NCBI GenBank assembly: GCA_039931165.1
Contig: JBDTSL010000001.1
Coordinates: 66,214-130,213 of the forward strand
Origin: Candidatus Doudnabacteria bacterium
GTDB taxonomy: Bacteria > Patescibacteriota > Doudnabacteria > UBA920 > O2-02-FULL-48-8
DNA: 64,000 nt
Direction of reading: 5' to 3'
Under the pieces are notes generated by a model. That model was not told where the DNA came from and ran no database searches. It saw nothing but the letters and a program-made list of their open reading frames with translations. Positions 5,912 through 56,112 of this stretch are shown piece after piece (the first letter of the stretch is position 1; every line of letters begins with the position of its first letter). A program made the position numbers and the translations under genes.

Positions 5912-5940
5912 TTAAACCAGTCTTGCCAGTTCCGGTTTTT
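5912..5940 (+). promoter_or_regulatory. Sigma70-like promoter (TTGCCA-17-TATGAT) for the plus-strand ORF
   Basis: -35/-10 hexamers with 17-nt spacing about 40 nt upstream of ATG at 5982. Confidence 0.4.
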
Positions 5941-5981
5941 TGCGCTATGATATAAGGCTGGTTTTCAATAGGAGGAAGAGA

Positions 5982-6449: not shown

Positions 6450-6480
6450 GAAAAAAATACGGATTCACGAAAAAGTTTAA

Positions 6481-6508
6481 GCCTTGCAGCAACTGCAAGG
6501 CTTTTTTT
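6481..6508 (+). terminator. Rho-independent terminator (GCCTTGCAG-CAA-CTGCAAGGC + T7)
   Basis: 9-bp perfect stem plus a T-run. Sits between two convergent genes. Confidence 0.75.
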
Positions 6509-6533
6509 ATTTATTTAACTCTTTTCAAAATTA

Positions 6534-25626: not shown

Positions 25627-26919
25627 TTGAAAACGCCTCAAATCTGTAGTAAAATGATGGCTATGACATTGAAATTTCGTTTTTCGCTGATTGGCTTTGG
25701 AATCATTTTATTCATGTTTATAACCCCTGTGCTGGTACTGTACGCCAGGGGGTTTCAGTTTGATTGGCATACTCATAAAATTGTAAAAACCGGGGCAATT
25801 GTTATCAAAACCGATCCTAGCGGAGCCGAGGTTTATCTTAGCGATAAAAAACAATCCGATACAACCCCGGACAGTATCCGATTTTTGCTGCCTGGGGACT
25901 ATAATCTTCGGATCGAAAAAGACGGCTATCAACCCTGGGCTAAAAGATTGACTGTCCGGGAACAATTCGTGACCAAGGCAGCCGAGGACCAAAATTTAAT
26001 AACACTGTTTTTCAAAGACCCGAAACCCGAGGAGCCTCGTGCCGCCAGCCAAATCTCGCTTTCAAAAACCGGGCAAGAAATATTTTATTTTGATGGCAAA
26101 CAAAACGCTGCCAGCATTAATACCTCAAATGGAAGCCTTACTCTCCAAGGCAACAAGGCCGACGCAAAACTTCCGTCTGTTCTGCCGGCCGCGATATTCA
26201 AATGGCAGAATGCCGCCCAATTTTTTGAACTTTTACAAAGCCGGGGCAAATGGGGACTGACCGACGAACAAATCGGCAAAGTCCAGGAGGCGGAGACCAC
26301 AGGAGCGCACAGTGCTGCTAAAATCGGGCCCGATCTGTATTCTCTGGACAATACCACTCCCGGACTTTTGGCAAAAAGTATAACCGCATTCACCCTGGAT
26401 GGCGAAAATATTTGGTATATTCAAGGAAGCGACCTTAAGCGCTTTGATTATTCCACAAACACTTCGGAAACAATCAATCAAATTGCCCCACTAGCCTCTA
26501 CCGCGAGAATTATCCGCGCGGATAATCAAATCTACGCAATTTTGGACAACAGTTTGTACGTGTTGAACGATACCTTTGAAAAAATCTACAGCCCGGTTTC
26601 TATGGCTTCTTATGACCCGGTTTCGAAACAAATGCTGTTCGGGAACAACAACGAGATTTTGATATACAAACCGGCTCAAAAAAATACTGTCCTGATCCAG
26701 CGCAGTTCAAGCGTCATAGGCAATCCGGTCCTGAATGCCGAAACCGGTTTTGTGTTTTTCCGCAATCAGGGCAAGATAAAAGCCGTCGAACTCGACGGCC
26801 GTGATCATAGAAATCTTTATACGATCGCGGACGATTTAGGAAATTTTGCAATTTCACCTGACGGCAAAACATTATACACATTCAACGATAAGCAGCTAAA
26901 AAAATATACAATTCGTTAG
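25627..26919 (+). CDS. PEGA-domain membrane protein with a C-terminal beta-propeller-like region
   Basis: TM helix, then a PEGA-like segment (VIKTDPSGAEVYL...GDYNLRIEKDGYQPW). TTG start per the ORF track; alternative ATGs at 25654-25665. Confidence 0.55.
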   Translation: MKTPQICSKMMAMTLKFRFSLIGFGIILFMFITPVLVLYARGFQFDWHTHKIVKTGAIVIKTDPSGAEVYLSDKKQSDTTPDSIRFLLPGDYNLRIEKDGYQPWAKRLTVREQFVTKAAEDQNLITLFFKDPKPEEPRAASQISLSKTGQEIFYFDGKQNAASINTSNGSLTLQGNKADAKLPSVLPAAIFKWQNAAQFFELLQSRGKWGLTDEQIGKVQEAETTGAHSAAKIGPDLYSLDNTTPGLLAKSITAFTLDGENIWYIQGSDLKRFDYSTNTSETINQIAPLASTARIIRADNQIYAILDNSLYVLNDTFEKIYSPVSMASYDPVSKQMLFGNNNEILIYKPAQKNTVLIQRSSSVIGNPVLNAETGFVFFRNQGKIKAVELDGRDHRNLYTIADDLGNFAISPDGKTLYTFNDKQLKKYTIR

Positions 26920-29485: not shown

Positions 29486-31096
29486 TTAGCTTTCCGTTTG
29501 TTTAATCATCTGTGGCAGAAGGCTGATGCCCGTCATTTCGGGGGGCTGCTCAATTCCCAGTAATTCTAGCATAGTCGGCGCCGCGTCCGAAAGAACGCCG
29601 ATCGGAACCAGGCCCGCCAGAGAAACCAGCCCGATTTCTTTCGGATGCCTCCTCTTGAACTGTTTGCCGATGAGCATGAATGGCACGGGGTTGGTTGAAT
29701 GCTCCTTGTTGATAGCTCCCGAGCGCACATCCAGAAGTTCCTCAATGTTGCCGTGGTCTGCCGTGATGATCAGGCAGATATCCAGCGATAGGCAAGCTTC
29801 GGAGACTTTTTTTAGGCATTCATCCACGACTTTTATCGCCTGGATCGAAGCGCTCATGTCCCCTGTATGCCCGACCATATCGGGATTGGCATAATTGACC
29901 AGCAAAAAAGTATAGCTTTCTTTTAGTTTGGACAGAAGAACTTCAGTGATCTTAAAGGCCGACATTTCAGGCACATCCGCGTAATTCTGGTAATTCGAGG
30001 CAGGCGAAGTTACGATCTCGCGGTCTTCGCCGGGAAAAGGTTTAATCACCCAGCCATTGAAAAACACCGAAACGTGGGCATATTTTTCCGATTCTGCCAG
30101 ATGATACTGCCGCAACCCCTTTTTGCTGATAACCTCAGCCATGCTGTTTTGCACTTCCAGCGGAGGGTAGGCGATTTTCACCGGCAGATCTTTGGCGAAC
30201 TCGGTCATGGTCACGAACAGCAAATTTTTAAGTTCCTTTCGCGGCTTGGCAAACTTGGTGAAATCCGGTTCGGTAAGGGCCCGTACAATCTGCAGAGCCC
30301 TGTCAGGCCGGAAATTAAAATGGATCACAGCGTCATTATCCTCAATTTTGGCGGTTGTACCGTCAGTTTGAGTTATCACGGTCGGCGGGATCATCTCATC
30401 AAAAATATGCCGGTCATAATTATCCTGGATAGCGTCTTGCGCGGAAGCCGCCTGTTTGCCTTCTCCAAAAACCATGGCCCGGTAAGTCTGTTCCGTCTGG
30501 TTCCAGTGATCTGCCCGGTCCATAGCATAAAACCGGCCCGTCACAGTGGCAATGTTGCCGACCCCGAAATTGCTGATTTTCTTGGTCAGTTTGGCCAGGC
30601 TTTCTAGCGCGATCTGGGGCGGCGTGTCCCGCCCGTCCAGGAACATCTGGATATACACTTTCGGAAGCTTGTATTCCGAGGCAAGGCCCAGGAGCGCGTA
30701 AACATGCTCATCGTAACTGTGAACTCCGCCCGGACTGATCAAGCCTACTAGGTGAAGAGCTGAATTATTTTTTTTTACGTGTTCGATAGCTTCCAAAAAA
30801 ACAGGATTTTGAAAAAAACTCCTGTCTTCTATGGCAAGCGTGATCCGCGACAGGTCTTGTCCCACGATCCTGCCGGCGCCCAAATTCAGGTGGCCGACTT
30901 CCGAGTTGCCCATTTCGCCCCAGGGCAGTCCCACCGACGGCCCCGAGGCCTGAAGCGTCGTGGCAGGAAAGTTCTCGATCATTGAATCAATGGTGGCCGG
31001 TTCGGCCATGGTCACGGGGTTTCCCTGCGACGCGGTGGCAATGCCAAAACCGTCGAGGACGACCAGAACCAATTTTTTATAAGGCTTGAAGTCCAT
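29486..31096 (-). CDS. gpmI: 2,3-bisphosphoglycerate-independent phosphoglycerate mutase
   Basis: LVVLDGFG N-terminus and metalloenzyme-domain similarity. Confidence 0.9.
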   Translation of the reverse strand: MDFKPYKKLVLVVLDGFGIATASQGNPVTMAEPATIDSMIENFPATTLQASGPSVGLPWGEMGNSEVGHLNLGAGRIVGQDLSRITLAIEDRSFFQNPVFLEAIEHVKKNNSALHLVGLISPGGVHSYDEHVYALLGLASEYKLPKVYIQMFLDGRDTPPQIALESLAKLTKKISNFGVGNIATVTGRFYAMDRADHWNQTEQTYRAMVFGEGKQAASAQDAIQDNYDRHIFDEMIPPTVITQTDGTTAKIEDNDAVIHFNFRPDRALQIVRALTEPDFTKFAKPRKELKNLLFVTMTEFAKDLPVKIAYPPLEVQNSMAEVISKKGLRQYHLAESEKYAHVSVFFNGWVIKPFPGEDREIVTSPASNYQNYADVPEMSAFKITEVLLSKLKESYTFLLVNYANPDMVGHTGDMSASIQAIKVVDECLKKVSEACLSLDICLIITADHGNIEELLDVRSGAINKEHSTNPVPFMLIGKQFKRRHPKEIGLVSLAGLVPIGVLSDAAPTMLELLGIEQPPEMTGISLLPQMIKQTES

Positions 31097-31142
31097 TTGT
31101 TAGAATATCTAAATATTAGAGTCTCTAATTAATTCAGTTTCC

Positions 31143-32396
31143 TCAATTTTTCAGCTCTTCCTCGATCTGCATCAGCCGGTTATATTTCGCCACTCGTTCT
31201 CCCCGAGCAACACTGCCGGCTTTGATATATTCTGCTCCTATGCCTACGGCGAAATCCGCGATAAAATCATCGGTCGTTTCACCGCTACGGTGGGAGGCAA
31301 CGATTTTATAATTATTTTTTTGGGCCAATGCCGCTGTAGCCAGAGTTTCCGTGATCGTTCCCACCTGGTTGGGTTTGATAATGATCGCGTTCGCGACTCC
31401 CATGTCAATCCCCTTTTTCAGCCGATCGGCGCGTGTGGCGAACAGATCATCTCCGACCAGCATCAATTTATCGCCAAGCCGGCTCTGCATCATCAACCAT
31501 CCTTCCCAGTCTTCTTCCGCCAACCCGTCTTCAATCGAAATGATCGAATATTTTTCCGCCCATTCTTTCAATAACGACACCAGCCGTTCGGCCGACAGGC
31601 TTGTGTGGTCCGCGGATAAAACATACTGGCTGTCATGCGCTTTAAACAACCCGGACGCCGCGATATCAGTGGCAATTGAAATGTCTTTCCCCAGCGCGAA
31701 ACCCGCCTCTTTTGCCGCTTCGGCTATGAAATCCAGGGCCTGGCGGTTGGATTCCACGTGCGGCGAAAAACCGCCTTCATTGCCGAGATTGGTGTTCAGG
31801 CGGCGGCCTTTCAGGACTTTTTCCAGGAAATGGAAAATTTCCGAAGCCACGCGGACATTTTCGGCCATGGAATCGAATTTGGGCACCAGCATAAATTCCT
31901 GAACATCGAGATTGGTATCCCCGTGCTGGCCGCCGTTGATGACATTGAACATCGGCTTCGGCAGTTTCAATTTCTTTTTCTTGGCCAGTGATCCAACGTA
32001 CTTATATATGGGAATTTTTTTGGCCGCCGCCGCGGCTTTTACCACTGCTCCTGAAACTCCCAGAATGGCATTGGCGCCGAGCTTTTTTTTATTTGGCGTG
32101 CCGTCCATCCCGATCATCGCTTCGTCGACGGCTTCCTGGTCAAATACGTTCATGCCTCTGATATTTTTGGCGATAACAGCATTGACGTTTGCGACAGCCT
32201 TCAGAACGCCGAGACCTCCATAATCTTTTCCTCCGTCGCGCAATTCCAAAGCTTCGGCGCTGCCTGTCGATGCTCCAGAAGGAACCCCGAAAGTCCCGCG
32301 GCCGCTTCCCGCTTCCACGGTCACTTCAACAGTCGGGTTGCCCCGAGAATCAAGTATCTGCCGAGCGAATATATTTTTGATGGGAGTGTTTGACAT
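31143..32396 (-). CDS. eno: Enolase
   Basis: ILDSRGNPTVEV and the SHRSGETED-like signature. Confidence 0.95.
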   Translation of the reverse strand: MSNTPIKNIFARQILDSRGNPTVEVTVEAGSGRGTFGVPSGASTGSAEALELRDGGKDYGGLGVLKAVANVNAVIAKNIRGMNVFDQEAVDEAMIGMDGTPNKKKLGANAILGVSGAVVKAAAAAKKIPIYKYVGSLAKKKKLKLPKPMFNVINGGQHGDTNLDVQEFMLVPKFDSMAENVRVASEIFHFLEKVLKGRRLNTNLGNEGGFSPHVESNRQALDFIAEAAKEAGFALGKDISIATDIAASGLFKAHDSQYVLSADHTSLSAERLVSLLKEWAEKYSIISIEDGLAEEDWEGWLMMQSRLGDKLMLVGDDLFATRADRLKKGIDMGVANAIIIKPNQVGTITETLATAALAQKNNYKIVASHRSGETTDDFIADFAVGIGAEYIKAGSVARGERVAKYNRLMQIEEELKN

Positions 32397-33628
32397 TATT
32401 TGGATGTTTCCAGAGCTTTAATTGCCGGCAATGGCTTTCCTGCCAGGAATTCTAGCATGGCTCCGCCTCCCGTGGAAACGTGGTCAATAAACTGCGATAC
32501 TTTCGCCTGATCCAAGACCTCAACGGTTTCGCCGCCGCCGACCACGCCGAAAGCCGGACCTTTTGACCTTGAAGCAAAAGTCAGGGCAATTGCCTTGCTG
32601 CCGAACCGGTATCGCGGATCCTCTATCAGGCCGAAAGGCCCGTTCCACGCCAGAGACCTTGCCAGTTTTATGAGGGCCGAAAATTTTCTTATGCTTTCCG
32701 GGCCTATGTCCAACATCAGATCGTTTGGCCTGACTTTATCAATATTTACCAATCTTGGCCGCGCCTTCAGGTCGGTTGCCACCACCACATCCACAGGCAT
32801 AACCAGTTTCTGCTTATAATGGCGGAGCAGATCTCTGGCCGCGGGCACATCCGAAATTTTTGACCTGCCAACCTCATAACCCAAAGCCTTCAAAAAAGTA
32901 TTGGCTACGCCGCCGCCCACAATAATATTCGAAGCGTGCTTCGCCAGGTTATGGATAGTATGAACCTTATCCTCAATTTTGATCCCGCCGATCAGAATCA
33001 CTAGAGGCGGGCGGGGATTTTTTGTGATCTTCGAAAGCGACCGGAGCTCTTTCATGAAAGAAATTCCGGCATAGGCCGGCAATTTCTTGGCCAGACCGAA
33101 AGTTGATGCTTCTTGCCTGTGCGCTACGGAAAAAGCCTCGTTGGCATAAACATCGCCGAAGCCCGCGAGAAGATCAATAAATTTTAGGTCGTTTTCTTCT
33201 TCTTCCTTATAAAAACGCAAATTTTCCAAAAATAAAATGCTGCCTGCCGGCAAATCCCGGCTGAGGCCGGAGTAATCTTTCTTCCTGATATCCGCCGGTA
33301 AAAAATTTATGGTCGGAACTTTATATCCGGAAAACTTGCTCACGATCCTGACCAGCTTATAATCTACCAGTTCGGCCAATTTAACAGCCACCGGCCACAG
33401 GCTTTTGGCTTTTTTCCAACCCTCGGGGCGGTCCAGATGCGCGATAATCACGATCTTGGCTCCTTGTTTGATCAAATACCGAAGCGTAGGCAAAATGTCT
33501 TTGACCCTGTTGTCATCCGCCACTTCCCACTCCTCGGTATGGATATTCTGCTTCAGCGGCACGTCAAATCCCGCGCGCAAAATCACGCGCCGGCCGGTAA
33601 CCCTTACTGATGTGATCGATTTGATCAT
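32396..33628 (-). CDS. pgk: Phosphoglycerate kinase
   Basis: Family-wide similarity. Start chosen at MIKSITSVRV. Confidence 0.9.
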   Translation of the reverse strand: MIKSITSVRVTGRRVILRAGFDVPLKQNIHTEEWEVADDNRVKDILPTLRYLIKQGAKIVIIAHLDRPEGWKKAKSLWPVAVKLAELVDYKLVRIVSKFSGYKVPTINFLPADIRKKDYSGLSRDLPAGSILFLENLRFYKEEEENDLKFIDLLAGFGDVYANEAFSVAHRQEASTFGLAKKLPAYAGISFMKELRSLSKITKNPRPPLVILIGGIKIEDKVHTIHNLAKHASNIIVGGGVANTFLKALGYEVGRSKISDVPAARDLLRHYKQKLVMPVDVVVATDLKARPRLVNIDKVRPNDLMLDIGPESIRKFSALIKLARSLAWNGPFGLIEDPRYRFGSKAIALTFASRSKGPAFGVVGGGETVEVLDQAKVSQFIDHVSTGGGAMLEFLAGKPLPAIKALETSK

Positions 33629-34521
33629 CTGCTGACACCTTCCACTTTCACCCAGCCTGGAGGAAGATCGCACGGTGTAGGGAAAGTTTTAACTTCCCCA
33701 GTCGCAGGATTCATTCCCGTCGTGATCACTTGGATGCAAGCAATAGGATTTTTCGGGTCAGAGATTGGGGTGATTTGTTTGGTACAATTTATTCCTGCGT
33801 CAGGGAACGAACCTTCCGAAACGCAGGTGTAGCCGGTCGTCGGGCAAGGCATACCGGCAATTCCTCCGCAAAAAACTGTGTTGGCAACTGTGAACTTGAA
33901 AGTGGAAAGGATTTGTTGAAAAATTTTAATCGCTTCTCCTTGATCCTTTACACTGAATAGCAATTCAATATCTATGCCCTCATTTAAGAGATCAACATTT
34001 TTCAAAAGTGACGCTGGTATTATTAATATGGCTATTCTTGCGGTATTATTTGGATCTATTGCAGTGGCTCCCAAATTCTCCCCATATCCGTACAGTCTAT
34101 ATCCCAAATTTTTGCCGTCTACAAGAACCGGAAATTCTTGATACTTTATAGTACCTTCTCGACAGCAATTGCTCTCGATTTGCAACTTGAATCTATTGGA
34201 AGGATCTTTAAAAGACACTACCGGAATAGAAGAAGTTGGACTGGCTTCAGACGACATAGTACTATCATTTGGATACTTAAAACTAAATCCATACTGATCA
34301 TTCGTATAAGTTTTCCAATTTGCCATTGTGTCAACTTTTTCGTGATGCACGGGAGGAATAATAACAGGCTCTGACTGGGAGACCTGGTAATAGTACGCTC
34401 CGGCAGCGATGGCGCCAAAAAGCAGGATTCCCAAAATCTCGGACATAATATGCCTGGCAAACCAGCTTTTGTGAGGTCCGAGTTCGAGTGGAGGCGGTTG
34501 TGAATTTCCTATTTCGGTCAT
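33625..34521 (-). CDS. Membrane-anchored modular protein, paralog A (TM + WKTYTN-QYGF module ending in ILSTFKFT + Cys-rich tail)
   Basis: Its first 240 nt are identical to paralog B's start. 4-nt overlaps chain A, B and C. Confidence 0.6.
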   Translation of the reverse strand: MTEIGNSQPPPLELGPHKSWFARHIMSEILGILLFGAIAAGAYYYQVSQSEPVIIPPVHHEKVDTMANWKTYTNDQYGFSFKYPNDSTMSSEASPTSSIPVVSFKDPSNRFKLQIESNCCREGTIKYQEFPVLVDGKNLGYRLYGYGENLGATAIDPNNTARIAILIIPASLLKNVDLLNEGIDIELLFSVKDQGEAIKIFQQILSTFKFTVANTVFCGGIAGMPCPTTGYTCVSEGSFPDAGINCTKQITPISDPKNPIACIQVITTGMNPATGEVKTFPTPCDLPPGWVKVEGVSR

Positions 34522-35558
34522 GGGGTGAATTTAAAGGTGGAAAGGATTTGATCCAAAACCTTTTCATCAAAATATTCTTTATCCAGAATTTTACTATTTA
34601 AAATATAAAATTCATTACTTCCAGTTTTAAAATGGTAAACAATGAGACCGCAATAATCTGACCTTGACATCATTATTCCGTTGACTAGTTTTGAGCTAGT
34701 CTTTATATCAAGACATCCCTCACCGAATCCAAATCCAGGATTATTTATCTTGATATTAAATCCATTGCTGCTTTTATTTGCATCCTCAAAGCTTATGTCC
34801 CCCCATCCGCTAGAAGAGGATTTATCTTGATAGGTTATTGACGGAGGATATTGAAACTCAAACCCGTACTGGCTGTTTGTGTAAGTTTTCCAAGTCGAGG
34901 TATCCAGAACTGAACTTGGCGTTGTGAACTTGAAGGTGGAAAGGATTTGGTTAATATAAGCAACGCTTGGCATTGTTTTCGGGTCTCCGGGGCAGTGTTC
35001 TTCATCCATAAAACTAACATCAATCAAATCTAGTCCGTCTTTAGTAATTGTCTGGAACGAGGCCTGGTCACAACCAGGAGCCCCTCCGGCAGGATTATAA
35101 AAAATATGCCAGGTCACGCCATTGATAACTTTTGAAGCAATAGAGGAAGGTGGATTTCCATAAGGATCAGTCGCAACGTCCGTGTAGCCTTTAATAATTT
35201 TTATGTCTGGTACAATATTATTTATCAATTGAATTGTCTGGTAAGTTTTTCCTGCAGTTGTCACGCTTCCAGTACCTGTAGTAGCGTCAAGAGGCATTAA
35301 TTCCACTGGAGTTTTTAACTCAAACCCATACTGATCATTCGTATAAGTTTTCCAATTTGCCATTGTGTCAACTTTTTCGTGATGCACGGGAGGAATAATA
35401 ACAGGCTCTGACTGGGAGACCTGGTAATAGTACGCTCCGGCAGCGATGGCGCCAAAAAGCAGGATTCCCAAAATCTCGGACATAATATGCCTGGCAAACC
35501 AGCTTTTGTGAGGTCCGAGTTCGAGTGGAGGCGGTTGTGAATTTCCTATTTCGGTCAT
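34518..35558 (-). CDS. Membrane-anchored modular protein, paralog B (two modules, each ending in ILSTFKFT)
   Basis: N-terminal 80 aa identical to paralog A. The second module opens with TPSS..DTSTWKTYTNSQYGFEFQYP, as in paralog C. Confidence 0.6.
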   Translation of the reverse strand: MTEIGNSQPPPLELGPHKSWFARHIMSEILGILLFGAIAAGAYYYQVSQSEPVIIPPVHHEKVDTMANWKTYTNDQYGFELKTPVELMPLDATTGTGSVTTAGKTYQTIQLINNIVPDIKIIKGYTDVATDPYGNPPSSIASKVINGVTWHIFYNPAGGAPGCDQASFQTITKDGLDLIDVSFMDEEHCPGDPKTMPSVAYINQILSTFKFTTPSSVLDTSTWKTYTNSQYGFEFQYPPSITYQDKSSSSGWGDISFEDANKSSNGFNIKINNPGFGFGEGCLDIKTSSKLVNGIMMSRSDYCGLIVYHFKTGSNEFYILNSKILDKEYFDEKVLDQILSTFKFTP

Positions 35559-36724
35559 GAGGTGAATTTAAAGGTGGAAAGGATTTGATTAGTTATTTCT
35601 TCGGTGCCCGACACTTCATAAACTTTGCCGTTTTTCTCGACATAGTAATCCGATCCGTTTGGAGTACTAAAATGCTGCCAGGATATACCCGCGACTGTCG
35701 CATTCCCTAGCTTCTTTTCATTTTTTAGAAAAGGATCATCTTTCAAAACAGTGGCCAATGTAACACTGTATATATCCACACGCCCGCTAAAATCTTGCGC
35801 GGGGTAACTAGTACGATAGATGGCTGCGAACATCCGGGAAACCGGCAAATAATCAGTTGAGCTGGCTTGTGAATCAACTACCTTTACCCATGTTTGAGGA
35901 TATTGAAACTCAAACCCATACTGGCTGTTTGTGTAAGTTTTCCAAGTCGAAGTGTCGGCAGTGGAACTTGGCGTGGTAAACTTGAAAGTAGAAAGGATCA
36001 ACTCGGCTGTTTTTTGATTGGAATCAAAATTCGGATCGGACGTAGGTGTAGCGAAATAATCACGAGATCCAAAATAAACATATGTATCGTATAAATCTGG
36101 AATAACGCCTGAATCTGGACTCTCGAAATAATCCACACCAGCTTTATTAAAACTGTATCTGATGTAATGAAAAGTTTTCCCATCCCCTCGATATACCGGG
36201 TGTTTGTAAATCTTAATTCCGCTGGAATTCGGGATAATTGACCTGGTTTTCAAAACATCAGCTTGAACACTGGCAACAGAAGTGGAATCTTGCTTCAAAA
36301 GCGCGGAGCCAGGCTCATTTATTCCCAATATTATTTGTTGTGCGCCGTCGCGGCTCAGATATACTTCATCTCCGTGACATGCAACGGCTGCCAGTGGGTC
36401 TGTTGTGGCGCAATTGTCATCAGCTGTTGTCAAAGCCAAGGCCGGGGGATATTTAAACTCCAATCCGTACTTTGTGTTGGAATACGCCTTCCAGTCAGCC
36501 ATAAAATCTTTATGCGCCGGTACTTGTAAAAATGCAGGAATCTGGCGCACGGTTTGCCAATAGTAAATTCCCGACACGATCGCGCCGACCGCGGCCAGCA
36601 AAAAAACAACGCCAAGAATCATATGCCGTGAAAACCAATTTTTATGCAGAGTATCTGTCATCGGAGTCGGGGGAACTTTGTAGGTTGGATCTGTTGGATT
36701 TTGATTTGGTTGTGGTGTATCCAT
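35555..36724 (-). CDS. Membrane-anchored modular protein, paralog C (two modules; divergent N-terminus)
   Basis: Shares module boundary motifs with A and B. Its TM anchor is homologous but diverged. Confidence 0.6.
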   Translation of the reverse strand: MDTPQPNQNPTDPTYKVPPTPMTDTLHKNWFSRHMILGVVFLLAAVGAIVSGIYYWQTVRQIPAFLQVPAHKDFMADWKAYSNTKYGLEFKYPPALALTTADDNCATTDPLAAVACHGDEVYLSRDGAQQIILGINEPGSALLKQDSTSVASVQADVLKTRSIIPNSSGIKIYKHPVYRGDGKTFHYIRYSFNKAGVDYFESPDSGVIPDLYDTYVYFGSRDYFATPTSDPNFDSNQKTAELILSTFKFTTPSSTADTSTWKTYTNSQYGFEFQYPQTWVKVVDSQASSTDYLPVSRMFAAIYRTSYPAQDFSGRVDIYSVTLATVLKDDPFLKNEKKLGNATVAGISWQHFSTPNGSDYYVEKNGKVYEVSGTEEITNQILSTFKFTS

Positions 36725-36733
36725 AAAATTTAT

Positions 36734-37810
36734 TTAATTATTTTCTTTTCCAATTAATATCGCCTGTTCCACAAATCGGTTGGCGTAGCCGAACTCATTG
36801 TCATACCAGGCGACTACTTTGACCATGTCGCCATCCACGACTTGGGTCAGGCTCAAATCCACGATGGCAGAATGCGGATTACCAATGATGTCAGTGGATA
36901 CGATCGGATCGGTCGTGACCTCCAATACGTTTTGCCACATCGGATGCTTGGACATTTCGATAAAAGCTTTATTCACCTCTTCGACCGTGGTTTTTTTATT
37001 CAAGATCAATGTAAAATCAGAGACTGAACCCACAGCGGTAGGTACGCGAAAAGCCATAGCGGTTAAAAGTCCCTTTAACTCCGGGATCACTTCAGTAGCG
37101 GAAATTGACGCGCCGCTGCTTGTGGGGATGATATTAACCGCTGCCGCTCTTGCGCGGCGCAAATCGCCTGACTTGCCGCCAGGCGGCGGTCCGTCCACCA
37201 AATTTTGTTCGGCAGTATAAGAATGGAGCGTGGACATCATCATTTTTTTCACGCCAAACTTCGAATGCAACACAGCGATGACGGGAGTAATGCAATTAGT
37301 TGTGCAGGAAGCATTGGAAATAATTTTCTCGCCTTTATACTTTTCGTGATTGACCCCGATGATAAAAGTCGGGGTAACCCCATCGTCTTTGGCCGGGGCC
37401 GAAATGATGACTTTTTTAGCCCCTGCCCGCAGGTGCGCTGAAGAAGCTTCAGTGGTGATGAATCTGCCGGTGGATTCCAAAACCACATCCACTCCCAGAT
37501 CTTTCCACGGCAGCATGGCAGGGTCTTTTTCGGCAAATATCGGGTATTTTTGTCCGCCAGCCGGCGGATCGACAATAATATTACCCGACGAAGAGATGAT
37601 CGGATTGGCCTTGGCTTTGACATTGTCAAAACCGACCTTTTTCTCATAGGGACCGTAGTTTGAATCATACCTCAGCAGCTGCGCCAGAACTTGCGGCTCG
37701 GTCAGATCATTGACCGCCGCAACTTCCAGTTCGGGCTTGGTTAAGGCGATTTTAAAAGCCTGCCTTCCGATGCGGCCGAAACCATTTATCGCGATTCTGA
37801 TCTTATCCAT
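36734..37810 (-). CDS. gap: Glyceraldehyde-3-phosphate dehydrogenase
   Basis: INGFGRIGR NAD-binding site and ASCTTNC active site. Confidence 0.9.
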   Translation of the reverse strand: MDKIRIAINGFGRIGRQAFKIALTKPELEVAAVNDLTEPQVLAQLLRYDSNYGPYEKKVGFDNVKAKANPIISSSGNIIVDPPAGGQKYPIFAEKDPAMLPWKDLGVDVVLESTGRFITTEASSAHLRAGAKKVIISAPAKDDGVTPTFIIGVNHEKYKGEKIISNASCTTNCITPVIAVLHSKFGVKKMMMSTLHSYTAEQNLVDGPPPGGKSGDLRRARAAAVNIIPTSSGASISATEVIPELKGLLTAMAFRVPTAVGSVSDFTLILNKKTTVEEVNKAFIEMSKHPMWQNVLEVTTDPIVSTDIIGNPHSAIVDLSLTQVVDGDMVKVVAWYDNEFGYANRFVEQAILIGKENN

Positions 37811-37949
37811 TTATTTTTAACAATGATACGAGAAAAGCTACCACAAACAATCCCCATACCAAAAAAATAATAAATTCCTCGGTGTTATGAAATTTAAGCT
37901 GTTCGTGTATGTGCTGATCGAGTGTTTTTCTTGTTTTGTGCTTGGCCAT
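37806..37949 (-). CDS. Possible 47-aa tail-anchored small membrane protein overlapping the gap start
   Basis: Manual translation: MAKHKTRKTLDQHIHEQLKFHNTEEFIIFLVWGLFVVAFLVSLLKING. Its stop overlaps gap codons 2-3. No SD. Below the ORF-track size cutoff. Confidence 0.25.
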
Positions 37950-37992
37950 ATTTTTTTAATTATTTTTTATTTAATGATATTGATTATTTATT

Positions 37993-38886
37993 TTACCTTA
38001 TTTTACCCGCCTTCCCATTGCACTTCAGCAATTTGATTTTGAATTCTGCCATTTGCTGCAAAGCATCGGTAGCCGGCCCCAGAAGTTTTCTGGGATCGTA
38101 GATCTGCGGGTTGTTTTTCAAGTTCGACCGAAGCGCTTTATTAAAAACCACTCGCAAATCGGTATCAATATTAAATATAGCCACGCCAAATTTTATTGCC
38201 GCCCGGATCTGCCTATCCGGCACTCCCGAGGCTCCGTGGACCACCAGCGGAATTTTGACTTTCTGGCGGATCTCTTTCAGCCGTTTCAGATCGATGTGCT
38301 CAACGAGAGTTGACATTATTTTTTTTATCTTGGGATTGACCGGGATTCCGTGGACAGAACCCAAAGCCACGGCCAAAGTATCGATCCTGGTTTCAGCTAC
38401 GAAACTGGCTGCCTGGTCCGGATCGGTCATGAGGTCATCCCCGGTTTTCACGGTCTGCCAATCCTCGCTGCCCAGAATTCTGCCTAATTCCGCCTGGACC
38501 CATACTCCCCGCTTATGCGCGTAAGCAACCACCTGTTTCGTTAATTTCAAATTGTCCTTATATTCCATTTGGGATGCATCCAGCATCACCGAAGAATAAC
38601 CGAGGTTGATCAGCTTTTTTATCAAACCAAAATCGTGGCAGTGGTCCTGGTGCAGGGCGATGGGGACCTTGGCCTTCCTGGCGTGTGTTTTTATCAGACC
38701 CACCAACTCTTCCATGCCAGCGTATTCCAAAGCGCCGACTGAAGTTTGGATGACGATCGGGGCTTTTTGCTTTTCCGCTGCCCGAACTATTCCAAGCGTG
38801 GTCTCCAGATCTTGCGTATTGAAAGCGGGTAAAGCGTACTTCCCCAGCATGTTCTTATTTATGATCCGGCCGATGTGAACTAGCAT
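37993..38886 (-). CDS. fba: Class II fructose/tagatose-bisphosphate aldolase
   Basis: Class II aldolase motifs (HQDHCHD...; VVHGASGV). Confidence 0.85.
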   Translation of the reverse strand: MLVHIGRIINKNMLGKYALPAFNTQDLETTLGIVRAAEKQKAPIVIQTSVGALEYAGMEELVGLIKTHARKAKVPIALHQDHCHDFGLIKKLINLGYSSVMLDASQMEYKDNLKLTKQVVAYAHKRGVWVQAELGRILGSEDWQTVKTGDDLMTDPDQAASFVAETRIDTLAVALGSVHGIPVNPKIKKIMSTLVEHIDLKRLKEIRQKVKIPLVVHGASGVPDRQIRAAIKFGVAIFNIDTDLRVVFNKALRSNLKNNPQIYDPRKLLGPATDALQQMAEFKIKLLKCNGKAGKIR

Positions 38887-39000
38887 AATAAAAAAATCCT
38901 AATATCTAAACTCTAAATCCTAAATAATATCCAAGCGCCAATTTTTCGAATTTTTAAAACCTTGGGATTTGTCATTTATTTAGAGTTTAGGATTTATGAT

Positions 39001-39210
39001 TTAAAACTTCACACCCGCTGTTAATATATCCCACAGGCCCGGCAATTGCGCTTTGTTGTTTTTGAGGGTGCAAAGCGCGTAGGCTAGATGGTAATTACAA
39101 CTCATTCCGCCTTTGGCCGTGATATTTTTCAGGCCGTGCCAATATAAAAATCCCAATACGACTACTACGGCCAAAATAATTTTTGTACCCCATTTTTTCC
39201 GAAAACGCAT
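39001..39210 (-). CDS. Small hypothetical membrane protein (69 aa)
   Basis: N-terminal TM helix; sits just downstream of paralog D. Confidence 0.35.
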   Translation of the reverse strand: MRFRKKWGTKIILAVVVVLGFLYWHGLKNITAKGGMSCNYHLAYALCTLKNNKAQLPGLWDILTAGVKF

Positions 39211-39218
39211 ATCAATTT

Positions 39219-40091
39219 TTATCTAATGCCTGTATCAATGCTGAAATCAAGTTTCACGCTCTGGCCCGCCTTGATAGTCACAGGCCGTGGAGCCGGACTG
39301 GTCCGAAACATGCCTACTGAACTTTTGTAAGTCACCAAATACGAGCCTGCGGGTAAATTCAAACTGTAATCACCCGATGAATCCAAAGCGGCTGAGGCAG
39401 CCACTGTCTTGGCATCATTTTTGTAAACAATAATTTGAGTGCCCGCATAAGCCTGGGGGGACGGCGGACACGGCATGCCGACCCTTTCCACCGGACAATT
39501 CGGCCCGATTGTGACATGGCCCGTGAGAGTTCCATTGCCGATTTGGACGACGGATGTAGGTGGATTATACGCTTTCAATTTATGGACGAGCTGATCAACT
39601 TCCTCCCATCCTGTTTTAAAATCATAATTATACCGGGCCGGCAGGGCTATTATATACTGCGAATTTTGGGCTAGAATACCGGGTGCGATCGGGGCTGCGC
39701 CCAGCGACATTTTTTCTTGCTGAACTAGCGTCCATTGCGAAGGTGTGAACACCATCACCGGCATATCCTCGCGAGGATCGGCCGCGGTCCAGAGTGGATG
39801 GCGCAGGGTTATCAGCGGGCCGTGGTCGAGAATTTTTCCGCTTGCCACGCTTCGCCCTTCCCATTGACTTGACTGGACCATAAATCCTTTCCAGCTGTTC
39901 GGCAAAGCAATAGAAAATCCATACTGATCATTTTTATAGGTTTGCAAATTTGCTGTTAAGCTTTCATGGATGAAAAAATAGGGCATCGACTGAGAAGCAA
40001 CTTGCCAATAATAGATCAAGCTAACCGCGGCAGCGACAGCCAATACAGCAAACAGAATTCCTAAAGCGTTATATTTATTGTTTTTTTTCAT
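39219..40091 (-). CDS. Membrane-anchored protein, paralog D of the WxTYxNDQYGF family
   Basis: TM anchor, then LQTYKNDQYGFSIALPNSW. Shares a GMPCP motif with paralog A's tail. Confidence 0.6.
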   Translation of the reverse strand: MKKNNKYNALGILFAVLAVAAAVSLIYYWQVASQSMPYFFIHESLTANLQTYKNDQYGFSIALPNSWKGFMVQSSQWEGRSVASGKILDHGPLITLRHPLWTAADPREDMPVMVFTPSQWTLVQQEKMSLGAAPIAPGILAQNSQYIIALPARYNYDFKTGWEEVDQLVHKLKAYNPPTSVVQIGNGTLTGHVTIGPNCPVERVGMPCPPSPQAYAGTQIIVYKNDAKTVAASAALDSSGDYSLNLPAGSYLVTYKSSVGMFRTSPAPRPVTIKAGQSVKLDFSIDTGIR

Positions 40092-40106
40092 AAGATTTTC
40101 TCCTTA

Positions 40107-41087
40107 TTAAATTTCTTTTGCCCTGAACTTAGGATGGGTTTTCAGATAATGCTCAATCTGAGACTTTGTGCGCAACCCGGCGTGAGGGCCGACAAACTGC
40201 ACCACGTAGCCGCCGTTAACCGTGCCCCAGGCGGCAGCTTCCTGGATCGGCTTGCCGTAAAACATGGCTGAAGTAAATGCCGTGCCGTAAGCGTCGCCTG
40301 CTCCCGTGGATTCCACGTGTGGGCCGACAAACTCATCCATATACCAAATTTTCAAAGACCCGTCGGAAGCGTATGAACCTTCCCTGCCGTCCGTGATCAC
40401 TGCGACCCGTGCCCCCAACTTATGCATGCCTGCAAGCAATGTTTTGACATTGCGGGTTTGTTGCTTCAGCACCAGCTGGGCTTCTTCGCGGTTCAGAAAT
40501 AAAATTTCCGTCCTCTTATAAATCCCTCTTAACGTGCTGGTGGCCATGCGCATCTGAAAAGTTCCGGGATTGAAAGCCAGCTTGATTTTTGGATTTTTCG
40601 CAAGCAATCCGCCAAGCTCCTTATGAAATTTTTCCGTTCCCTGGGCCATGGACGAAAAATAGATCCATTGAGTGTCCAGCTTACGCGGAAGTTTGTACGC
40701 AAACTTATTGTGCTTGATCAAAATCGTCCGCTCGCCCTGAAATGACAGAACGAAGTGAAAATTCGTCTGGACGTTTTTGTTGATATGGACAAACTGCGTG
40801 TCTATTCCCTCACGTGTCAATTCCCGGATGATTTTTTGACCGCTTTCATCGTCTCCGACCGCGGACACGAACGCATCTTTCATGCCGAGCCGGGATGAGC
40901 CCACCGCATTATTGGTGGAATTGCCAGCCGGCAGTAAGGTCAGATGTTCGTAAGGGATCTTATCAGCGAAAGACATGCATAATTGGCAGTTGGTATGATC
41001 TACGCCGCAGTGGATCGAAGCTTCATGCAATTGTATAAAAGCGTCAATGGTCGTGTCGCCGATCGATACAATATCGTATTTGCTCAT
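40107..41087 (-). CDS. PfkB-family carbohydrate kinase (ribokinase-like)
   Basis: C-terminal TGAGDAY anion-hole motif and the GG N-terminal motif. Confidence 0.75.
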   Translation of the reverse strand: MSKYDIVSIGDTTIDAFIQLHEASIHCGVDHTNCQLCMSFADKIPYEHLTLLPAGNSTNNAVGSSRLGMKDAFVSAVGDDESGQKIIRELTREGIDTQFVHINKNVQTNFHFVLSFQGERTILIKHNKFAYKLPRKLDTQWIYFSSMAQGTEKFHKELGGLLAKNPKIKLAFNPGTFQMRMATSTLRGIYKRTEILFLNREEAQLVLKQQTRNVKTLLAGMHKLGARVAVITDGREGSYASDGSLKIWYMDEFVGPHVESTGAGDAYGTAFTSAMFYGKPIQEAAAWGTVNGGYVVQFVGPHAGLRTKSQIEHYLKTHPKFRAKEI

Positions 41088-48075: not shown

Positions 48076-48495
48076 TTATTCTGCCGTTCTTGCTTTTTTT
48101 GTATCGAGGTATTGCTGGAGCATGATCTGGGCTGCAATGTTATCTTTAACCCCCCTCTGCTCTTTTTCTTTGATTCCGAGCTCTCTCAGTCTGTTCGTTG
48201 CTTCCACTGAAGTAAACCGTTCGTCTATCAGGGTTATCGGGACTTTCACAGCCTTGGAAAGATTATCTACAAAAACCTTAAGTTTCACGGCGGATTTTTC
48301 TTCTTTGCCGGCCAAATTCTTAGGCAGTCCAACCAATACCAAGCTGATTCCGAGTTCATTAATTATTTTTATTATTTCAGCTATTGCATTTTGTGTTTCG
48401 AAGAACTGTTCCAGGGGAAAAGCGATTTTTCCTTCTTCATCCGAAACCGCCGCCCCGACCCGGGCTTCTCCCCAATCAATCGCCAAAACCCTCAT
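48076..48495 (-). CDS. ruvX: Holliday-junction resolvase-like RNase RuvX/YqgF
   Basis: VLAIDWGEARVGAAVSD N-terminus (RNase H fold). Confidence 0.85.
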   Translation of the reverse strand: MRVLAIDWGEARVGAAVSDEEGKIAFPLEQFFETQNAIAEIIKIINELGISLVLVGLPKNLAGKEEKSAVKLKVFVDNLSKAVKVPITLIDERFTSVEATNRLRELGIKEKEQRGVKDNIAAQIMLQQYLDTKKARTAE

Positions 48496-48630
48496 TTACC
48501 CCCACACCAAAAGAGCTTTTGTTTCGGCAAAGCCGAAACAGTTGGCTCTTGAATTATCGCTGTTGGACTATATTCAATCATTTTATATTCATAATTATTT
48601 TACTAAATAAGCTCGTTATGGTGTGGGGGT
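48496..48630. repeat. MITE/Correia-like element, copy 1 (TIRs ACCCCCACACCAAA.GAGCTT / AAGCTCGTTATGGTGTGGGGGT; internal TTTCGGCAAAGCCGAAA hairpin)
   Basis: Fills exactly the spacer from htrA's stop (TTA at 48631-48633) to ruvX's start codon (CAT at 48493-48495). About 90% identical to copies 2 and 3. Confidence 0.8.
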
Positions 48631-49887
48631 TTATTTGCTCTCCCCTAAGGTCACCGTCAGATCTTTGGTTTTGCCGCCGCTGAAAACGGTCATTTTCACA
48701 ACATCTCCCGGATTAAAATCTTTCAGGTAGGAAGCCAAGCTATGGTCTTGATTTAAATCCTTCCCATTGATCTGCTGGATTATGTCATGTTCCTTAAGCC
48801 CGGCTTTATCCGCGGCCGAACCCGGTAAAACTGCCGGCGAGCTGATCAAGTCTCCCGAAACGATCAGCGCGCCATGGTCGACGCTTAAATTATTTTGCTG
48901 CTGGATGCTTTGGTTGATCATGACATACCTCACTCCAAGGAACGGCTTGACGATCCTGCCGACTTTTTGGAAGCTGCTGATATCTTTTTTGATGTCATTT
49001 ACCGGAATGGCAAATCCGATCAATTGTCCCTGGGAATCCATGGCGGTGTTAATGCCTATCACCGAACCGCCTATATCCAGAAGCGGACCGCCTGAATTGC
49101 CCGGATTGATCGCCGCGTCGGTCTGGATCACGCCTTCCAGTTGTTCGGAATCCGAACCGGTCTCACCGCCGGCCGTTATCGTCCGGCCGATGCCGGAAAC
49201 AATGCCTTTGGTGACAGTATTGCTATATTGGCCCAAGGAATTCCCGATCGCTATGACAGTCTGGCCGATCCGGAGACCGGAGGAATCACCCAAAGGTAAA
49301 GTTGGCAATTGACTGGCGCTTATTTTCACCAAAGCCAGATCATTGACCGGGTCGCGCGACAATACTGTCGCGTCATATTTCTTGCCGTCATTGGTCAGTA
49401 CTGTATAAGTGGCGGTTGTGTCTGCAACCACATGCTTGTTGGTCATGATCAGCCCATCGGAAGATACGATAAATCCGGAACCGCCTCCTATCTGCTGGAT
49501 ATTCGGCGTATTGTTTTTTTGGTTCTGCTGATTGCGGTTCTGAAAAAACGGGTCAAACGAAAAGGGGCCAAAGTCAAAAGGCGAGGTAGAATATCCGGGA
49601 ATTTTATTAAGATCTTTGGAAATTATGATCGAAACAACCGCCGGACTGGCATTCTTGACCACGTCAACAATCCCCGACTGTTCGTTCACGGAAACGGTTT
49701 TTATATCGCTGCCGATGCCGGAGCCAAATGAAACGCCATTATGCAATAAAAACGTTGAACCAAAAACAGCTCCTCCGATGCCAAAAAGAAAACTGAGCAA
49801 AACCACCAAAGTAATCAGCTTAATACTGGATTCCCCTGCTTCGGGCAAATCCGAAGTCAGAGCTTTTTCATTATTTAACTTTGTCAT
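48631..49887 (-). CDS. htrA: HtrA/DegP-family serine protease with a PDZ domain
   Basis: Catalytic triad context (TNKHV, GNSGGPL) and a C-terminal PDZ domain. Confidence 0.85.
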   Translation of the reverse strand: MTKLNNEKALTSDLPEAGESSIKLITLVVLLSFLFGIGGAVFGSTFLLHNGVSFGSGIGSDIKTVSVNEQSGIVDVVKNASPAVVSIIISKDLNKIPGYSTSPFDFGPFSFDPFFQNRNQQNQKNNTPNIQQIGGGSGFIVSSDGLIMTNKHVVADTTATYTVLTNDGKKYDATVLSRDPVNDLALVKISASQLPTLPLGDSSGLRIGQTVIAIGNSLGQYSNTVTKGIVSGIGRTITAGGETGSDSEQLEGVIQTDAAINPGNSGGPLLDIGGSVIGINTAMDSQGQLIGFAIPVNDIKKDISSFQKVGRIVKPFLGVRYVMINQSIQQQNNLSVDHGALIVSGDLISSPAVLPGSAADKAGLKEHDIIQQINGKDLNQDHSLASYLKDFNPGDVVKMTVFSGGKTKDLTVTLGESK

Positions 49888-54277: not shown

Positions 54278-54622
54278 TTAAAACTCCAATCCAGCGGCTC
54301 TCGCCGCTTCCGCTAATTCTTTCACACGGCCATGGTATTGATAGCCGCCTCGGTCAAATACGATTTTTTTGATGCCTAGGGCCTTAGCTTTTTCCGCGGC
54401 CAATTTACCCACAGCGGCGGCGATTTCCGATTTCTTGCCCTTGCTTTTAACTTCAGAGCTTGAAGCAGCAGCCAGGGTTTTACCGGTTTCGTCGTCGATC
54501 AGCTGGATATAAATGTGCGAAAGTGAGCGAAAAACATTCAGCCTTGGCTTGGATGAACTGCCGATGACTTTAGCGCGAACCCTTCTCTGGCGCATTTTTC
54601 GTTGTGCTTGTCTGGTATTCAT
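54278..54622 (-). CDS. rplR: 50S ribosomal protein L18
   Basis: Start chosen at [14 protein letters not shown]. Confidence 0.9.
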
Positions 54623-54761
54623 ATTTACCCCCACACCAAACGAGCTTTTCTTCCGGCAAAGCCGAAACAATTTTCCCGTGATGTGTTAATTTCTTCGTAA
54701 TCTACTAATATTCTTATAATCATAATTATTTTACTAAATAAGCTCGTTATGGTGTGGGGGT
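54623..54761. repeat. MITE/Correia-like element, copy 2
   Basis: Exactly fills the rplF stop (TTA at 54762) to the rplR start (CAT at 54620-54622). TIRs and internal hairpin as in copy 1. Confidence 0.8.
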
Positions 54762-55343
54762 TTATTTCGCTCCCACGGCCTTCACGACTTTGCCGGCTTT
54801 GCGTCTGATGACCTCATCCGAATATTTAATACCTTTGCCTTTATAAGGCTCCGGTTGCCGGTGAGAACGCACAACCGCGGCAAATTGCCCGACCGCCTGG
54901 CGGTCAGAGCCCGTGATGGTAATCGTGTTTTTCTCGACTTTCGCTTCCAGCCCCTGCGGCACTTCCATTTCGATCGGGTGAGAATAACCCAGATTTAAAA
55001 CCAATTTTTTTCCGGAAATCGCCGCCTTATACCCCACACCGTTGATCTCCAAAATTTTTGTAAACCCGGTGGTGACCCCGACGATCATATTGTTGATCAG
55101 TGCCCGGAACAGTCCCCACAAGGCACGCTGCTGTTTATTCTCACTATCGCCTACGCTAACCAGCACTTCCGAGTCTTTTTGTTCGACTTTAACTTTCGGA
55201 TGCAACGCCAAACTCAGCTCTCCTTTAGGTCCTTTGACTTGCAGGATTGAGTCCTTTCCGCCGGAGGCGGATCCGCCTTCGGCGGAGATGTCAACTGTGA
55301 CACCCGCGGGCACTGGAATTGGTTTTTTTCCTATTCTGGACAT
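54762..55343 (-). CDS. rplF: 50S ribosomal protein L6
   Basis: Family similarity. Confidence 0.9.
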   Translation of the reverse strand: MSRIGKKPIPVPAGVTVDISAEGGSASGGKDSILQVKGPKGELSLALHPKVKVEQKDSEVLVSVGDSENKQQRALWGLFRALINNMIVGVTTGFTKILEINGVGYKAAISGKKLVLNLGYSHPIEMEVPQGLEAKVEKNTITITGSDRQAVGQFAAVVRSHRQPEPYKGKGIKYSDEVIRRKAGKVVKAVGAK

Positions 55344-55378: not shown

Positions 55379-55777
55379 CTACCACACCTGGCAGACAACC
55401 TCGCCGCCAATCTTGTTTTGGCGCGCTTCCTTATCCGTCATTAATCCTTTCGAGGTTGAAATGATCGTGGTGCCGATGCCTCCCATGACTTTCGGGATCT
55501 CGGTTCTGGCGGAGTAAATCCTCTGTCCGGGTTTGCTGACACGCTTGATCCCTGAAATCACAGGCAGTCCGGTCTCGTCATATTTGAGTTCCAACAACAA
55601 GCTTTTGAAACCATCGGTCTCCTTGACTTCCACTTTCTTGATATAACCTTCAGAATGCAAAACCTTGGCCAAATTATGCTTAAAATTCGAATAGGGCAAA
55701 ACCACGTCCGGTTTGCGTGCCATCAGGCCGTTGCGGATGCGGGTCAACATATCGGAAATTGTATCGGTCATGGTCAT
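55379..55777 (-). CDS. rpsH: 30S ribosomal protein S8
   Basis: Start chosen at MTMTDTISDMLTRIRN; the ORF-track GTG start at 55789 lies inside the repeat element. Confidence 0.9.
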   Translation of the reverse strand: MTMTDTISDMLTRIRNGLMARKPDVVLPYSNFKHNLAKVLHSEGYIKKVEVKETDGFKSLLLELKYDETGLPVISGIKRVSKPGQRIYSARTEIPKVMGGIGTTIISTSKGLMTDKEARQNKIGGEVVCQVW

Positions 55778-55917
55778 ATTTACCCCCACACCAAACGAGC
55801 TTCTGTTTCGGCAAAGCCGAAACAGTTTGCTCTTGAATTATTTTCTTCTCTGTTATATTCGATCATTCTTGTAGTCATAAATATTATTACTAAATAAGCT
55901 CGTTATGGTGTGGGGAT
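55778..55917. repeat. MITE/Correia-like element, copy 3
   Basis: Exactly fills the rpsN stop (TTA at 55918) to the rpsH ATG (CAT at 55775-55777). Confidence 0.8.
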
Positions 55918-56112
55918 TTACCAAGAAGCCTTAAATACGCCGGGGATCTCGCCGTTGGATGCTAGTTCCCGAAAACAAATGCGGCAAATATCAAAATCAC
56001 GCATATAGCCGCGCTTGCGGCCGCAGCGCCAACAGCGTCTGACCACGCGCGTCGAATACTTCGGGTTGGTGCGCGAACGGAATGATTTAATTGTCTGTGC
56101 TTTGGTTGCCAT
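55918..56112 (-). CDS. rpsN: 30S ribosomal protein S14, type Z (zinc-binding)
   Basis: [20 protein letters not shown] zinc ribbon; 64 aa. Confidence 0.9.

Follow-up and report, generated by a model that had tools for sequence, protein, structure and literature searches.

We analysed a 64,000-nt window of a 159,654-nt contig from a Candidatus Doudnabacteria metagenome-assembled genome (MAG), and in particular three adjacent minus-strand genes, designated C (35555-36724, 389 aa), B (34518-35558, 346 aa) and A (33625-34521, 298 aa). All three are complete open reading frames (ORFs) with ATG starts and are identical to NCBI ABI643_00530, ABI643_00525 and ABI643_00520, respectively, all of which are annotated as hypothetical. 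A first-pass annotation had placed the three genes at these coordinates and described them as chained by 4-nt overlaps, and the ORFs confirm this: the C/B and B/A overlaps both read ATGA, because of which the three genes are probably translationally coupled. Each product consists of an anchor followed by one or two modules. In C, the anchor (aa 1-77, 36494-36724) is followed by module C1 (aa 78-250, 35975-36493), a linker (35945-35974) and module C2 (aa 261-389, 35558-35944). The same layout is found in B, with an anchor (aa 1-68, 35355-35558), module B1 (aa 69-212, 34923-35354), a linker (34893-34922) and module B2 (aa 223-346, 34521-34892). Gene A carries an anchor (aa 1-68, 34318-34521), a single module A1 (aa 69-211, 33889-34317) and a Cys-rich C-terminal tail of 87 aa with six Cys (aa 212-298, 33628-33888).

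A motif search found the same opener, WK(T/A)Y(T/S)N..YG(F/L), and the same closer, ILSTFKFT, in all five modules, as had been described; the accompanying statement that every gene ends at a module end fails for A, which continues for 87 aa past ILSTFKFT. This tail has no Pfam match. Many family proteins with different modules end in a similar sequence (50-73% identity), the conserved part being the second half of the tail (ACIQVIT..NP.TGE.K.FPTPCD.P.GWVKV). It looks like an independent, uncatalogued small domain. The predicted transmembrane anchor was found in each of the three proteins as one strong N-terminal hydrophobic helix. No second hydrophobic stretch is present in B or C, and a weaker second peak lies beyond residue 70 of A. 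The strongest hydrophobic 19-mer of C is located at aa 35-53, and the hydrophobic stretches are preceded by K/R/H. These features suggest an N-in, C-out topology, in which a short basic N-terminus would be cytoplasmic and the modules would face outward; by analogy with other PsbP/Mog1-fold proteins, we guess that the proteins bind or scaffold partners at the cell surface.

The modules show similarity to the PsbP family at several levels. Pfam PF18933 (PsbP_2) matched A at 27.2 bits (gathering cut-off, 27), C at 25.6 bits and B at 15.8 bits; the last score was also obtained for a fourth paralog, D (39219-40091), which the ORF listing adds to the three genes of the first-pass annotation. The matched sequence is mostly the opener region, since the interiors in these subfamilies have diverged too far to be captured by the model. 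NCBIfam yielded only very weak PSII_PsbP matches. Precomputed PF18933 or PF01789 matches exist for many homologues of B and C, and NCBI names some of these homologues 'PsbP-related protein'. Structure prediction, which had been proposed as a check, was performed for B alone. The AlphaFold2 model (45-sequence alignment, mean pLDDT 74.8) contains a helix at residues 20-48 and then two PsbP-type alpha/beta domains, each starting with two short strands that correspond to the opener and finishing with a helix and a short C-terminal segment that correspond to the closer. The top Foldseek match of this model in the PDB is CyanoP (2lnj; E 7.4e-4, probability 1.0, TM-score 0.51 on the target), followed by plant (maize) PsbP, Tsi3 and two structural-genomics proteins (3lyd among the matches). 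Similarly, a profile built from 48 modules and run against 177,635 PDB sequences retrieved only CyanoP (E 0.021) and cyanobacterial PsbP (E 0.035), both with weak scores. In both profile alignments the opener corresponds to Y.D..GYEF.YP.GW; the closer corresponds to IVSSF in 2xb3, and the 2lnj alignment ends at profile position 90, before the closer. Judged from the model and these alignments, the modules are complete PsbP/Mog1-fold domains of the PF18933 kind, and the opener and closer are conserved elements at the N- and C-terminal ends of the PsbP fold, that is, hallmarks of the family and not a diversification device. The borders would then be nearly invariant because they are structural, comprising the first two strands and the C-terminal helix and end, and the remaining sheet and loops differ by subfamily.

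The conservation of the borders extends far beyond this locus. Among the 120 best homologues of C, which come from Parcubacteria, Moranbacteria, Yanofskybacteria, Kerfeldbacteria, Doudnabacteria and other groups, the opener is present in 112 and the closer in 116, in a word-based search that favours proteins sharing these motifs. This bias does not affect an exhaustive HMM search run with the module profile, in which 32,963 cluster representatives (50% identity) were detected at E <= 1e-3 and 9,174 at the stricter E <= 1e-10; 2-6 modules are typical of the best matches. The conserved borders, which had been taken for a product of recombination at this locus, are thus family-wide elements of the PsbP fold. 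Genes A, B and C are ordinary members of a very large, catalogued and functionally uncharacterised family, and the locus itself is not exceptional. Our literature search found no paper on the motifs of this PsbP-like family, on PF18933 or on PsbP in CPR bacteria; the single paper that names both PsbP and Patescibacteria does so in unconnected parts of its text.

At the nucleotide level, the array contains repeats that lie over these borders. A perfect 240-bp repeat at 34282-34521, shared by A and B, had been reported; the repeat is real, but the exact match is 234 nt long and lies at 34289-34522 and 35326-35559, 233 nt of it being inside the genes from the start codon on. When one mismatch is allowed, the match gains another 30 nt on its upstream side, where it enters the closing motif and stop codon of the preceding gene, and reaches 264 nt. 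Of the two minus-strand copies of this repeat, which we call R, copy 1 (34289-34552) comprises the closer and stop of B, the entire anchor of A and the A1 opener, and copy 2 (35326-35589) comprises the closer and stop of C, the anchor of B and the B1 opener; their start-to-start spacing is 1037 nt. A second repeat, absent from the first-pass annotation, links the inter-module junctions of B and C: the 103-nt segment at 34844-34946 (ILSTFKFTTPSS..DTSTWKTYTNSQYGFEFQYP) is 87% identical to its partner at 35896-35998, both on the minus strand. A third similarity is found at the gene ends, where the 31 nt preceding the start codons of A and B, which form the ends of B and C, are identical at 30 of 31 positions. 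A nucleotide repeat had also been thought to recur at every module end. The module ends are indeed similar, but the 19-mer TGAAAGTGGAAAGGATTTG occurs exactly only once, at 33897, and the other four ends differ from it by 1, 2, 2 and 4 bases. The mismatches within the A/B and B/C repeats are mixed (C/T, A/G, A/C and others) and show no adenine bias.

The interiors of the modules make a sharp contrast to these repeats. They had been described as unrelated and hypervariable; they are divergent, but they belong to one domain family, as shown by the comparison of full modules including the borders (B2/C2, 35% identity, E 4e-15; B1/B2, 30%; B1/C2, 26%). When only the interiors are compared, identity within the locus is 23-25%, and the interiors are 44-56% identical to proteins of other organisms. 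The B1 interior shows 47-52% identity to relatives elsewhere, often single-module proteins of ~210 aa, one of which is from a Moranbacteria genome. For C1, the relatives (47-51%) are single-module proteins or contain other combinations, and those of C2 (45-54%) and B2 (44%) have the corresponding module in either the first or the second position. Relatives of A1 (55% for the interior only, 51-54% from opener to closer) carry it behind an N-terminal region, long and hydrophobic, that appears to span the membrane several times. The combinations C1+C2, B1+B2 and A1+tail were repeated in no retrieved protein. Since the interiors are closer to proteins of other genomes than to their neighbours in the array, the cores are old subfamilies, and the five modules are such subfamilies differently combined across lineages, not hypervariable cassettes.

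Whether the similarity of the borders reflects conserved protein sequence or nucleotide exchange can be read from synonymous sites, which we scored as same-codon sharing, defined as the fraction of positions with identical amino acids that use the same codon. At the N-termini of A and B, 73 of 74 degenerate codons are the same (P 4e-30). The whole B/C junction shares 23 of 31 codons against 12.5 expected (P 6e-5), and within the positional pairs of borders the values are 9/9 for the B2/C2 closers at the gene ends (P 2e-4), 14/15 for the B2/C2 openers and 8/9 for the A1/B1 closers. Border pairs that do not occupy corresponding positions (for example, A1/B2, B1/B2 and C1/C2) share only 3-7 of 8-12 codons, which is the chance level, and the fraction for the interiors is 0.36-0.60. 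The change is abrupt: the A1 and B1 interiors, which lie directly beside the 234-nt exact match, are 24% identical and share 8 of 22 codons, again the chance level. Chance is thus excluded as the source of the positional border repeats. The earlier suggestion of recombination or gene conversion finds support at the positional borders, where the synonymous sites agree, but not in the form of a homogenisation of all module ends.

This mosaic also argues against a scenario in which whole genes were recently duplicated and selection then drove only the interiors apart, very fast, so that the borders have simply not yet diverged and no conversion is needed. B and C are both two-module proteins in tandem, and B2/C2 is the most similar pair (35%), as such a duplication would leave them. 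The paralogs, however, must have split before the lineages that carry the closer relatives of their interiors, and synonymous sites at the borders could not have stayed 93-100% identical for so long; moreover, the A1/B1 interiors, with 24% identity and 8/22 shared codons, directly adjoin the 234-nt exact match. We therefore regard this duplication scenario as very unlikely.

Comparable patterns were found at other loci of the family. Extended matches around openers, with a minimum of 90 nt and 80% identity, were found for 12% of the module pairs within a locus versus 0.12% of those between loci, and 12 of the 31 multi-module loci, the window included, contain border-overlapping repeats of at least 90 nt with at least 80% identity. 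For example, two tandem two-module paralogs at one locus (L081) have a protein identity of 32% and a common 96-nt junction with 95% identity. Self-matches of ~47 nt at openers with 80-90% identity were discounted as evidence, because they are expected from amino-acid conservation alone. Pooled same-codon sharing differs only mildly within and between loci (0.60 versus 0.53 for openers, 0.67 versus 0.49 for closers); this pooled comparison is confounded by shared codon usage and is superseded by the extended-match and positional-pair tests. Separately, three Patescibacteria contigs with this family contain direct repeats outside the motif borders: 124 nt at 100% identity (L092, 227-350 and 1609-1732), 1084 nt at 97% (L105, 1-1084 and 3290-4373) and 188 nt at 96% (L155, 8257-8444 and 10804-10990). 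These could be recent duplications or assembly repeats.

Taken as a whole, we consider it likely that the array represents a lineage-specific tandem expansion of an extracytoplasmic PsbP/Mog1-fold family, on which recent conversion between adjacent paralogs has acted at the borders. Five modules of old subfamilies would have been brought together by duplication and domain shuffling. Their borders would keep short nucleotide similarity between neighbouring genes, and this similarity would be used by non-allelic homologous recombination. A tract of at least 264 nt may have been copied, which gave A and B the same N-terminal anchor, and tracts of ~100 nt at the B/C inter-module junction and of ~30 nt at the B/C gene ends may have been copied in the same way. 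The A/B anchor, the B1 interior and the A1 interior have different proteins as their nearest relatives, and the breakpoints of the recombination lie at the opener and closer motifs. The simplest cause of this pattern, and one that is well supported at the borders, is recent gene conversion of short tracts or some equivalent exchange between homologous sequences. The border tracts must be recent because the interiors predate the split from other organisms, and their end points would fall in the motifs because the paralogs retain nucleotide similarity only there.

Several points weigh against this interpretation. The PsbP assignment depends on weak scores (27 bits in Pfam; E 0.02-0.035 for the PDB profile matches), and the model of B is of moderate confidence, with a mean pLDDT of 74.8 that falls to 47-52 in parts of module 1. 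The evidence for gene conversion comes from a single assembled MAG sequence. The import of new interiors between the original borders, that is, cassette replacement, would give the same pattern as converted borders. In addition, an exact repeat of 234 nt could have been resolved wrongly in a short-read MAG, or variation in its copy number could have gone unnoticed.

The history of the site informs both the expansion and its alternatives. The array lies between gap (36734-37810) and pgk (32396-33628), and the gene content of this interval differs among relatives. In the relative L001 (identities of 85% for GAPDH, 81% for FBA and 63% for PGK), the gene order is pfkB, D-like, fba, gap, X and pgk, and X (9034-10008) is a single PsbP-like gene with a C-like anchor, one PsbP-like module and an unassigned C-terminal region. 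Its D-like gene (5735-6628), the syntenic counterpart of D, shares a C-terminal domain with D at 51% identity, and the D module is not detectable in it by BLAST. In L002 (PGK, 60%), a membrane-anchored protein (96-881) without a PsbP-like module and without a Pfam match is encoded directly before pgk. The slot directly upstream of pgk is thus occupied by a membrane-anchored protein in three related genomes (those of the window, L001 and L002), with differing ectodomains. The more distant Doudnabacteria-like L003 and L004 have no PsbP-like gene between gap and pgk: the two genes abut in L004, and ~1 kb containing only an unrelated 111-aa ORF separates them in L003. By this comparison, the three-gene array is a lineage-specific expansion. 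The ectodomain content of these sites thus turns over faster than the housekeeping genes.

An extension of the conversion hypothesis is that the opener and closer also act as built-in homology arms for whole-domain exchange between paralogs, and possibly between genomes. We put this forward only tentatively, and on balance doubt it. If it were true, the ~33,000-cluster family would be a recombination-assembled, combinatorial surface-protein repertoire of reduced genomes, and the A/B/C array would be a locus caught shortly after such exchanges.

A related proposal holds that the locus varies its surface proteins by cassette shuffling, the borders being handles by which interiors are swapped appreciably within a population, for example for host attachment or phage evasion. 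The position of the breakpoints at the opener and closer motifs fits this proposal, as does the occurrence of the same module subfamilies at other positions, with other anchors or tails, in other genomes. So do the differences between relatives in gap-pgk content (3, 1 and 0 genes) and the D module, which BLAST does not find in the syntenic counterpart even though the C-terminal domains are 51% identical; the direct 264-nt repeat would also permit deletion or amplification of gene B by homologous recombination. Against this stand the 44-56% identities of the interiors to orthologues elsewhere, which are not those of hypervariable cores, and the restriction of codon sharing to positional homologues. 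The surface-protein variation advanced at first finds no machinery for a programmed system either: all copies are full-length and probably translationally coupled, silent or truncated cassettes are lacking, and a Pfam scan of 27 window ORFs (19.5-53.2 kb) identified no reverse transcriptase, recombinase, invertase or transposase within ~15 kb. The earlier statement that the window holds no reverse transcriptase stands for these 27 ORFs. Furthermore, no near-identical sequence of A, B or C turned up from another sample, each protein being seen on a single contig only. An exact-sequence search for gene B in the contig index gave no match, although its protein is present at NCBI. We therefore consider cassette shuffling unlikely. 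Two specific forms of it were rejected: a diversity-generating retroelement, given that these ORFs include no reverse transcriptase and that the mismatches are not A-biased, and a silent-cassette system of the pilE/pilS or vls kind, given that the ORFs are complete and that the window contains no partial copies, D also being full-length.

The long exact repeat might instead be an assembly artefact or a collapsed strain mixture, with a different true arrangement such as C-A only. The source is a MAG, an exact repeat of 234 nt is longer than the k-mers indicated by the names of other contigs (k141 and k127) and than the assumed read length, and no second contig with the A, B and C proteins exists among those retrieved. 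Nevertheless, the two R copies stand in different in-frame contexts on both sides, with one flank mismatch. All four junctions (C-end/R, B-end/R, R/B1 and R/A1) are needed, so that the assembled order would be the only linear path. Comparable repeats are also present in independent assemblies of other Patescibacteria. An artefact is thus highly improbable. Selection on the RNA or DNA itself, such as on translational-coupling signals or ribosome-binding regions at gene ends, is scarcely credible: it would account for the 30/31 identical nucleotides before the A and B starts, where a coupling signal would lie, but it leaves the 234 identical nt from the start codon on and the internal B/C junction unexplained, between-locus pairs almost never have such stretches (0.12%), and Rfam matched no RNA family in the window. 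Border-limited conversion within an expanded PsbP-like array hence remains our preferred interpretation.

The surroundings of the array are of a housekeeping nature. According to Pfam, it is part of a minus-strand cluster at 29486-41087 that reads pfkB, D, a 69-aa ORF, fba, gap, C, B, A, pgk, eno and iPGM, and the stop of A also overlaps pgk (PF00162) by ATGA, the real pgk start being at 33628. The highest-scoring promoter-like site (11/12) is located at 41150-41122, upstream of pfkB, and in the scan of the window neither promoter-like nor terminator-like sites exceeded chance expectation. From this arrangement, we infer that A, B and C are co-transcribed with the glycolytic cluster, and they are probably co-expressed with glycolysis as constitutive surface proteins. 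In paralog D (290 aa, minus strand, between pfkB and fba), the N-terminal anchor is followed by a divergent PsbP-like module (LQTYKNDQYGFSIALP), and the C-terminal domain is CarboxypepD_reg-like. The wider neighbours include transketolase, rpe, rpiB, tpiA, RecJ, a MurA-like gene (EPSP_synthase family match), MurB and MreB, as well as an operon with ribosomal-protein genes, secY, adk and map.

Some other features of the window were also recorded. The 69-aa ORF between D and fba (39001-39210, minus) has an N-terminus, KKWGTKIILAVVVVLGFLYWHG, that resembles the membrane anchor of the family with its Y-W motif, and may be a remnant of another PsbP-like family member or a small membrane protein. 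The corresponding 225-nt gap between the D-like gene and fba in L001 contains no ORF of at least 100 aa, smaller ORFs not being listed. A plus-strand gene at 25627-26919, on the strand opposite to nearly all its neighbours, encodes a protein of 430 aa that contains a PEGA domain and weakly matches CarboxypepD_reg; it may be another envelope protein. Finally, an intergenic repeat of ~145 nt is present in three copies (48494-48644, 54619-54774 and 55774-55920) with 81-87% identity. It has terminal inverted repeats of ~20-24 nt (ACCCCCACACCAAACGAGCTT ... AAGCTCGTTATGGTGTGGGGGT) and resembles a miniature inverted-repeat transposable element or a long hairpin. Folded as RNA, one copy has a free energy of -54.3 kcal/mol and a z-score of -7.4; the repeat has no Rfam match. 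Two of the copies are located inside the ribosomal-protein operon, directly 5' of the minus-strand start codons of two ribosomal-protein-like genes, which were recognised by reading the sequence only.

We regard the identity of the modules as settled, in that they are PsbP-like domains whose striking borders are, by modelling and alignment, fold elements. Border-limited gene conversion would be a recurrent feature of this family, the supporting repeats being present in several independent Patescibacteria assemblies. Patescibacteria probably depend on cell-surface contacts, in keeping with the lifestyle assumed for them. The size of the family, its membrane anchoring and the apparent lack of work on it make it a reasonable choice for structural analysis and binding assays.

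Compared with known systems, the array shares with diversity-generating retroelements and with pilE/pilS- and vls-type systems a conserved framework around variable surface-protein sequence. It differs from the former in having no template/variable repeat pair with A-specific changes, and from the latter in having neither silent cassettes nor a single expression site. The proteins resemble PF18933 (PsbP_2) in the opener motif, the module length of ~100-190 aa, the N-terminal membrane anchor and the frequent occurrence of 2-6-module proteins, whereas B, C and D score below the curated cut-off. PsbP is an extrinsic subunit of photosystem II, and CyanoP is its cyanobacterial homologue. These proteins (PF01789; 2lnj, 2xb3 and 4rth) are the best structural match and the sole PDB profile matches, with alignable openers and closers, but identity is 9-15%, and the domains described here are tandemly repeated on a membrane anchor at the predicted cell surface. 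Doudnabacteria, like other Patescibacteria, presumably have no photosystem, and the window itself shows only housekeeping genes; a common fold does not imply a common function. The type VI immunity protein Tsi3 (3wa5 and 4luq), which is extracytoplasmic and protein-binding, also has this fold (Foldseek probability 1.0, TM-score 0.55 on the target), but the context of A, B and C is glycolysis, with no Tse3-like effector or secretion genes nearby. The closest parallel to the process that we propose is the concerted evolution of tandem paralogs. The array departs from it in that the tracts are confined to the structurally conserved borders and the anchor, without specialised machinery or donor cassettes, and agrees with it in that old, divergent sequence lies on both sides of segments with the same synonymous sites and in that similarity within the genome is far above that between genomes.

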